From Fusobacterium sp. (GTDB lineage: Bacteria > Fusobacteriota > Fusobacteriia > Fusobacteriales > Fusobacteriaceae): a DNA stretch of 64,000 bases. The position numbers were made by a program, and so were the translations under genes. How positions within the stretch are numbered: position 1 is the first letter of the stretch; each line of letters opens with the position of its first letter. The notes beneath the pieces were generated by a model. It was not told where the DNA came from. It ran no database searches and was given only the letters and a program-made list of their open reading frames with translations. The stretch is taken from assembly GCF_036516095.1 (NCBI RefSeq), contig NZ_DATBUM010000017.1, forward strand, positions 2,520-66,519, in the 5' to 3' direction. Below, one piece after another: positions 61,610 through 61,850 of the stretch.

Positions 61610-61638
61610 TTGACTTATTTTTCATAGAGTGATAGAAT
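61610..61638 (+). promoter_or_regulatory. Promoter of the leader peptide-nhaC transcript
   Basis: TTGACT (61610-15), 17 bp, extended TGn-TAGAAT (61633-38). Confidence 0.8.
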
Positions 61639-61668
61639 AATAAAAAATTAAAAGAAGGAGGGAACAAA

Positions 61669-61740
61669 ATGAAACAAAAAAATCAAAAAAATTGTCAAAA
61701 TCATTTTGCGAACTTTTTCTACTATTATTATATGAATTAG
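61669..61740 (+). CDS. Tyr/Phe-rich attenuator leader peptide, 23 aa (MKQKNQKNCQNHFANFFYYYYMN)
   Basis: Strong RBS AAGGAGG (61655-61); ATG 61669; codons TTT-GCG-AAC-TTT-TTC-TAC-TAT-TAT-TAT; TAG at 61738-40; too short for the ORF track. Confidence 0.88.
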   Translation: MKQKNQKNCQNHFANFFYYYYMN

Positions 61741-61850
61741 AGAGTCACACAAAAAGTTAGTGGCTCTATTTGCATTGTCAAGGAGCCTCTAATGATAGTA
61801 AAGATTAATGGGCTTCTTGCAATGTGAACTTGTAAGAAGCTTTTTTATTT
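61741..61850 (+). promoter_or_regulatory. Attenuator RNA: alternative hairpins, antiterminator and terminator
   Basis: 61741-48/61760-67 hairpin; 61762-72/61779-87 hairpin; antiterminator 61769-88/61810-28; terminator 61812-22/61830-40 followed by TTTTTTATTTTT. Confidence 0.85.

Follow-up and report, generated by a model that had tools for sequence, protein, structure and literature searches.

A gene encoding an NhaC-family carrier of 462 aa (TIGR00931, 1e-124; PF03553, 3e-53) was identified at 61910-63298 on the forward strand of the window, i.e. the whole stretch of 64,000 nucleotides that was analysed. Upstream of this gene and on the same strand, we found a sigma-70-type promoter, TTGACT-17-TAGAAT, at 61610-61638, which showed 10/12 matches and contained TG two bases before the -10 box. 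A Shine-Dalgarno (SD) site AAGGAGGG was located at 61655-61662, 6 nt upstream of the ATG at 61669. According to the ORF reading of the sequence, this ATG opens a leader of 23 codons (MKQKNQKNCQNHFANFFYYYYMN, 61669-61740) with the stop codon TAG at 61738-61740. Four tandem tyrosine codons, TAC TAT TAT TAT, lie at 61720-61731 (+), and two codons separate this run from the stop. Between the leader ORF and nhaC there is an intrinsic terminator at 61810-61842 (+), composed of a 13-pair hairpin followed by the T-run TTTTTTATTTTT; the nhaC ATG at 61910 starts about 58 nt past this T-run. An earlier sequence-only reading had listed the promoter, SD site, leader ORF, terminator and NhaC-family gene, and on re-reading the sequence all five were at the positions claimed, including the 23-codon ORF with a tyrosine run near its end and the terminator about 60 nt before the transporter.

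Within the region 59800-62100, the hairpin at 61810-61842 was the only terminator-like site. The 221-nt leader folded with a z-score of -3.65 and was more stable than all 200 dinucleotide shuffles. Through a genome-wide scan for SD-preceded short ORFs containing a run of a single residue, we obtained three ORFs with a tyrosine run, among which the leader ORF was the only intergenic one followed by a terminator. An overlapping ORF in the +2 frame (TTG at 61692, ...LLLL...) was also considered and was rejected, since the F. nucleatum sequences have no leucine in that frame.

In an Rfam scan of 59800-62000 (E <= 10) no match to Trp_leader, His_leader, Leu_leader, Thr_leader or Phe_leader was detected. 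PyrG_leader gave a sub-threshold match in the leader (28 bits, gathering score 65), which was due to the terminator. The T-box family RF00230 matched neither the leader nor any other position in the entire genome.

Two neighbouring genes were considered as parts of the same unit. A gene of the SNF/NSS (sodium:neurotransmitter-symporter) family at 60150-61574 (+) ends 36 nt upstream of the -35 box of the leader promoter, with no terminator in between. Tyt1 is a characterised NSS tyrosine transporter of F. nucleatum. This neighbour was rejected as part of the unit because it adjoins the leader in this genome only, and the adjacency was missing from the other loci of the F. necrophorum group and from those of the F. 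nucleatum group. Downstream, an ORF of 213 aa at 63295-63936 (+) has a signal-peptide-like N-terminus and no Pfam or NCBIfam match. With its GTG start it overlaps the end of nhaC by 4 nt, which makes co-transcription probable; as a member of a conserved unit it was rejected, being present in the necrophorum group only.

A search upstream of nhaC orthologues, which the sequence-only reading had put forward as a check, showed that leaders ending in three to five tyrosine codons recur across lineages. Among species-representative genomes, ten of the closest nhaC loci carried a short ORF 120-175 nt upstream with the ending YYY(YY)[KM]N-stop; they came from F. necrophorum, F. nucleatum, uncultured Fusobacterium, Oceanivirga miroungae and two MAGs labelled Eubacterium and Clostridia. 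No leader was found at the more distant NhaC homologues (<=66% identity: Gemella, BVAB1, Neisseria, Kingella and Bacillaceae) or at the Pasteurellaceae nhaC loci examined.

Around and 3' of the leader stop, the sequence forms a conserved RNA block, AAU UAG AGAGUC .. GGCUCU GUUUGCAUUUGUAAG(G)AGCCUCUAAU, and this pattern was searched in the genome of the window, in 194 Fusobacteriota genomes and in metagenomes. It occurred once in the genome of the window, in 19/194 Fusobacteriota genomes belonging to three genera with one copy per genome, and on 77 metagenome contigs. Three to five tyrosine codons in frame with the UAG were present at 107/108 loci from genomes and metagenomes, while the N-terminus of the peptide was divergent, and the homologous leader ORFs were 19-31 codons long (107/108 loci with a leader). 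The leaders were compared in the 36 unique ORFs that a simple SD/ATG filter retained; it excluded 19 loci, among them poor assemblies and at least one SD of the GGGGG type. The spacing between SD and ATG was 8-10 nt in all 36. Within the tyrosine run of these 36 leaders, the only changes were synonymous (TAT/TAC) and no replacement was found, and the N-terminal two thirds of the peptide diverged freely. A tyrosine run kept through synonymous flips beside a diverging N-terminus is a signature of selection on translated tyrosine codons. The UAG stop was conserved as well, and the spacer of two codons between the run and the stop was kept in nearly all lineages. Each related lineage also has a separate promoter of the form TTGAC(A/T)...TA(T/G)A(C/A)T at the equivalent relative position; the frequency of promoter-like sites in the region was not above that in shuffles.

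The sequence-only reading had proposed sensing of tyrosine and possibly of phenylalanine. The tyrosine part agrees with the universal tyrosine run, whereas the three phenylalanine codons before the run are confined to the necrophorum group, so that sensing of phenylalanine would be at best a local extra.

Linkage of the block to the transporter gene was close. At 102/108 loci an nhaC orthologue follows directly 3' of the block, and the exceptions were contig ends, error-rich assemblies and a few orphan or rearranged leaders. In the 194 Fusobacteriota genomes, the motif and an nhaC orthologue of at least 75% identity were found in exactly the same 19 genomes; a further genome, G180, has an orthologue at 69% identity with a plain promoter and no leader.

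Several loci showed peculiar arrangements. On three metagenome contigs (L112, L137 and L167) an orphan or rearranged leader and terminator were found with no nhaC downstream. L137 has other sequence in place of the 5' part of the leader, and on L167 only about 460 nt of sequence remain past the leader and a change in element C (see below) weakens the C:D pairing. At two loci of a Fusobacterium species (L084 and L132), an element of about 110 nt is present as two direct copies between the terminator and nhaC, about 230-440 nt past the leader stop; through this insertion the nhaC start lies about 373 instead of about 155 nt past the leader stop. A human gut metagenome contig of 1493 nt (L154) carries a divergent relative of the motif. 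The carrier encoded there has a 55-residue N-terminal stretch 43% identical to NhaC; its tyrosine codons (YYYW) are in the +1 frame, a UAA within element A closes the ORF, no T-run follows the last hairpin, and an intrinsic terminator is absent.

The entire leader-nhaC cassette, with 72-78% protein identity, was also found at L006, L009 and about 15 metagenome loci, among them L103, L105, L126 and L131. These copies sit on long contigs with record titles that name Eubacterium or Clostridia MAGs, indicating either a joint cross-phylum transfer of gene and regulator or mis-binning.

Past the leader stop we recognized five sequence elements, all on the forward strand. Element A (AGAGUCAC, 61741-61748) directly follows the stop codon and can pair with B. 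Element B (GUUAG-U-GGCUCU, 61756-61767) can pair with A through 61760-61767, or with C as an anti-antiterminator. Element C (CAUUGUCAAGGAGCC followed by UCUAAU, 61773-61793) has two possible partners, B in the OFF state and D when it acts as an antiterminator. Element D (GGCUUCUUGCAA, 61811-61822) is the 5' arm of the terminator, and element E (UUGUAAGAAGC, 61830-61840) is its 3' arm, which together with the T-run extends over 61830-61852. Four pairings are thus possible, A:B, B:C, C:D and D:E, with D:E being the terminator itself. The sequence of C is a near copy of E and so mimics the 3' arm of the terminator.

Comparison of 19 lineage representatives gave evidence for these helices of different kinds. 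A:B was 96% paired, with one pair exchanging C-G, U-A and U-G, and in the Clostridia-labelled lineages it is lengthened to 11 pairs. D:E contained four pairs with compensatory changes, and the compensatory values of A:B and D:E were matched by 0/500 shuffles. B:C was 99% paired, and since its core is invariant and perfectly complementary, it provides no evidence from covariation. The consensus structure from RNAalifold was the OFF fold, consisting of B:C, the outer helix AUUAGA/UCUAAU and the terminator. For C:D the MAFFT columns were not register-consistent, as was also the case for the extension of B:C, and C:D was therefore scored by duplex energy against a null from the same genome, in which element C was paired with the 5' arms of 223 other terminators (mean -4.0, sd 2.2 kcal/mol). 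In the window the C:D duplex reached -15.0 kcal/mol (z = -5.0), and in 17/19 lineage representatives it fell within the best 3.6% of the null or better. Matched changes in C and D were seen as GUAAAGAGCC/GGCUUUUUAC in L084 and as UUGUACG/CGUACAA in L154. Across lineages whose NhaC proteins share only 68-78% identity, the segments UUAGAGAGUC, GGCUC, UUUG and GAGCCUCUAAU were invariant. That A, B and C do not vary is expected if each of them must fit two partners.

The sequence-only reading had interpreted the leader as an attenuator, and comparison of the loci supports this interpretation. The predicted antiterminator is complementary to the 5' arm of the terminator and tracks the changes in that arm, and the placement of the stop codon would allow a terminating ribosome to mask the first element of the switch.

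Folds were also computed with and without a mask for the ribosome. With A free, the minimum free energy structure of the full-length window leader was A:B plus the antiterminator C:D (-34.6 kcal/mol); with A masked, it was B:C plus the terminator (-29.7 kcal/mol). The full-length leader of L003 switched with the mask in the same way. In transcripts ending before E and with A free, A:B and C:D were formed in 55/64 unique sequences. In RNA that extends only through A, B and C, the calculated equilibrium of most lineages lies with the extended B:C hairpin (-13 to -16 kcal/mol), also when A is left free; at full length many lineages prefer the terminator under every mask. Regulation would therefore have to rest on the co-transcriptional order of folding and on A tipping a close balance. 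Since freeing A can only favour the antiterminator, tyrosine limitation should turn nhaC on, and in these fold models the polarity of the switch is robust.

Considering these features together, the element is most probably a ribosome-mediated transcription attenuator by which the supply of Tyr-tRNA(Tyr) would govern the gene of an NhaC-family carrier, itself a probable tyrosine importer. In the proposed mechanism, transcription would start from the promoter at 61610-61638 and the 23-codon leader would be translated while RNA polymerase advances. When tyrosine is plentiful, the ribosome would reach the UAG. A begins right behind the stop codon, and a ribosome that holds UAG in its A site and protects about 13 nt beyond the stop would therefore cover A. 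B would then pair with C as the extended hairpin UUAG-N-GGCUCU / AGAGCC-N-CUAA, which the outer helix AUUAGA/UCUAAU could lock once the ribosome has gone. With B:C formed, D would pair with E and transcription would end at about 61845-61852. Under a shortage of charged tRNA(Tyr), the ribosome would halt on the tyrosine run, 9-18 nt 5' of the stop, and leave A exposed, so that A:B would form once B emerges and C would remain available. Being a near copy of E, C could capture D; the C:D helix would block the terminator, and nhaC would be transcribed. A pause of the polymerase at the A:B hairpin, which is followed by U-rich sequence, may contribute to the order of folding. The analysis shows the parts and how they are conserved, the complementarities and how the mask changes the computed folds; that the leader is translated and ribosomes stall on it, as well as the kinetics, the state of a leader that is not translated and the transporter's substrate, we infer.

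The predicted physiology of the strain fits this model. No prephenate/arogenate dehydrogenase domain (PDH_N) was found in the 99.9% complete genome, while the domain was present in 14/14 control genomes; its absence points to aromatic amino-acid auxotrophy, and the genome appears unable to make tyrosine. A match to chorismate synthase on another contig (C122:4617-5555, - strand) was split into two adjacent pieces in different frames, suggesting a frameshift or a sequencing error. NhaC-family transporters under the control of tyrosine-specific T-boxes have been documented in several Firmicutes, e.g. BA4353 (PMC2494555). No Tyr T-box was found before the nearest Firmicutes homologues of the NhaC protein studied here. 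As the closest Firmicutes and Neisseria homologues carry neither T-box nor leader, the tyrosine assignment rests on the leader together with the family precedent, and the carrier is probably a tyrosine importer. A tyrosine importer induced by low charging of Tyr-tRNA would be compatible with the missing dehydrogenase, the lack of a T-box and the precedent in Firmicutes. In a transcriptome of F. nucleatum, an NhaC-family gene (paralogue unspecified) and tyrosine phenol-lyase were among the co-repressed genes (PMC9848294).

Other explanations of the locus were weighed against the attenuator model. The leader might sense general translation capacity or transcription-translation coupling, with the tyrosine run acting merely as a slow stretch. 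Such a sensor would suit a switch that reads only the position of the ribosome, and also the extra phenylalanine codons that some lineages have just 5' of the run. However, tyrosine is the sole residue kept as a run in all lineages, through TAT/TAC flips and while its neighbours vary, and a genome apparently unable to make tyrosine also argues against a general sensor, which we regard as unlikely. The signal might also be something other than tRNA charging, if the nascent ...YYYY(Y)[KM]N followed by UAG-A caused a programmed arrest or slow release, or if the RNA block bound a protein or a small ligand. TnaC, which arrests with free tryptophan, is the model for a nascent peptide of this kind. 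The conserved C-terminal spacer of two residues with its UAG stop would agree with arrest or binding, as would the four invariant segments in front of NhaC proteins of 68-78% identity. This invariance is nevertheless explained by the dual partners of the elements (B with A and C; C with B and D) and by the mimicry of E by C; no Rfam family matched, and neither an arrest motif nor a ligand pocket could be inferred from the sequence, so arrest or ligand binding seems very unlikely.

It is also conceivable that the product of the short ORF is a small protein with a separate role, or that the leader RNA released at the terminator (about 215 nt) has a function in trans, the hairpins being ordinary 5'-UTR structure. 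Attenuator RNAs and leader peptides with activity in trans have been reported for Sinorhizobium (PMC6614838 and PMC7968998), and a partial HF motif is conserved in the peptide. In the loci compared here, however, the N-terminal two thirds of the peptide diverge freely and its length varies between 19 and 31 residues, the element is strictly linked in cis to nhaC with one copy per genome, and the complementarity between terminator and antiterminator is specific; a small protein or a function in trans is thus highly improbable. Finally, the leader could be a chance ORF in an AT-rich intergenic stretch beside the ordinary terminator of the upstream gene, given that short ORFs and T-runs are common in an AT-rich genome and that promoter-like sites were no commoner than in shuffles. 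Yet the SNF gene is adjacent in this genome only, while the cassette is kept before nhaC in three genera and in metagenomes, and the element has its own promoter in each lineage. The arrangement exceeds chance by the fold z-score, by the unique combination of tyrosine-run ORF and terminator in the genome and by the in-frame conservation of the tyrosine codons. A chance origin is already contradicted by these conservation data and has practically no probability.

Among known systems, the closest architecture to the tyrosine leader is that of the multi-helix his attenuator. In the his attenuator, a run of cognate codons is combined with a cascade of more than four helices that exclude one another and with an intrinsic terminator, and the position of the ribosome selects the fold. 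The tyrosine leader resembles hisL in its run of cognate codons within a leader ORF, its cascade of several helices and its intrinsic terminator. The control codons of hisL, however, lie inside the first helix, which is melted by the stalled ribosome, whereas in the tyrosine leader all helices lie 3' of the stop codon. With the control codons upstream of all helices, it would be the terminating ribosome, not the stalled one, that melts the first helix. The two also differ in their targets, a biosynthetic operon for hisL and a transporter here, and they share no sequence homology, as judged by the lack of an Rfam His_leader match. The trpL and pheL leaders of E. coli couple tRNA charging to termination as the tyrosine leader is proposed to do; they follow a four-segment 1:2/2:3/3:4 design with the codons in segment 1, in contrast to the codons outside the helices found here. 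Both belong to Proteobacteria and control biosynthetic genes, and the tyrosine leader matches neither the Trp_leader nor the Phe_leader family. The pheL leader is reported to sense phenylalanine, which like tyrosine is aromatic (PMC3082878).

In function, the tyrosine leader comes nearest to the Tyr T-boxes located before NhaC genes in Firmicutes; the transporter family is the same, and the proposed signal of tRNA-Tyr charging and the read-through of a terminator would be shared as well. A T-box binds the tRNA directly and does not need translation, and none is present in the genome of the tyrosine leader. Candidate uORF attenuators were listed by the Breaker laboratory in a survey of 26 genomes including F. 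nucleatum; uORFC-8-2 (cysS/Cys) and uORFC-13-1 (aroF/Phe) are likewise products of comparative genomics with cognate codons in a uORF and a terminator, and they concern other amino acids, genes and clades (PMC8632094). No mention of nhaC or of a tyrosine motif was found in the survey as far as it was searched.

The sequence-only reading had known of no characterised attenuator with tyrosine codons and of no such case in Fusobacteria. This agrees with our full-text literature search, in which no published description of the element was found, with most subscription journals lying outside the reach of the search. A paper on fine-mapping of the F. nucleatum transcriptome gave no description of it either, and Ribo-seq or Term-seq data for the leader locus were not found in the literature searched. 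The class of mechanism is a textbook one; what differs from the known systems is tyrosine as the amino acid, the occurrence in Fusobacteriota (and in Clostridia-labelled lineages), the single transporter as target and the position of the codons upstream of the helices. Within the literature searched, leader-peptide attenuation would thereby be extended to a new amino acid, a new phylum and a different geometry.

For F. nucleatum and F. necrophorum, which are medically relevant anaerobes whose gene regulation is little known, the element offers a regulatory annotation for a gene named "Na+/H+ antiporter NhaC", and it suggests that these organisms, which are apparently unable to synthesize tyrosine, possess an importer for it. 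Sensing the occupancy of a stop codon would require tight coupling of transcription and translation, so the logic of the tyrosine leader implies that the two processes are sufficiently close in Fusobacteria. Published genetic tools for F. nucleatum, of which the laboratory strain ATCC 23726 has a cassette of the homologous type, make the attenuator model testable.

Two leader candidates bear on a more general use of attenuators in this group: the tyrosine leader before nhaC, and a leader with an arginine run (MKSVVRRRQF.. or MLRRRMIR..) before a polar-amino-acid ABC importer. Considering both, we might speculate, tentatively and with some doubt, that Fusobacteria use leader-peptide attenuators as a general link between amino-acid import and tRNA charging in place of T-boxes, that the tyrosine device senses the occupancy of its stop codon, and that the cassette travels into Clostridia-labelled lineages.

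The second candidate lies outside the window, on contig C42 of the same genome at about 5960-6245 (+) (L200, about 260-545). It is composed of a promoter, an SD site and the ORF MKSVVRRRQFNID with the arginine codons AGG AGA AGG, followed by two terminators, each a hairpin plus a T-run, and by an importer operon of the polar amino-acid ABC type. In the necrophorum group, an arginine-run leader of the form MK[SF][VI]VRRRQF.. recurs 5' of the orthologous permease. About nine genomes of the F. nucleatum group also contain an arginine-run leader 5' of this permease, mostly MLRRRMIR[KR].KN, with a variant MLRRFRVRNN.. in L223, and other genomes have an ORF MLKHHSNSFSN.. instead.
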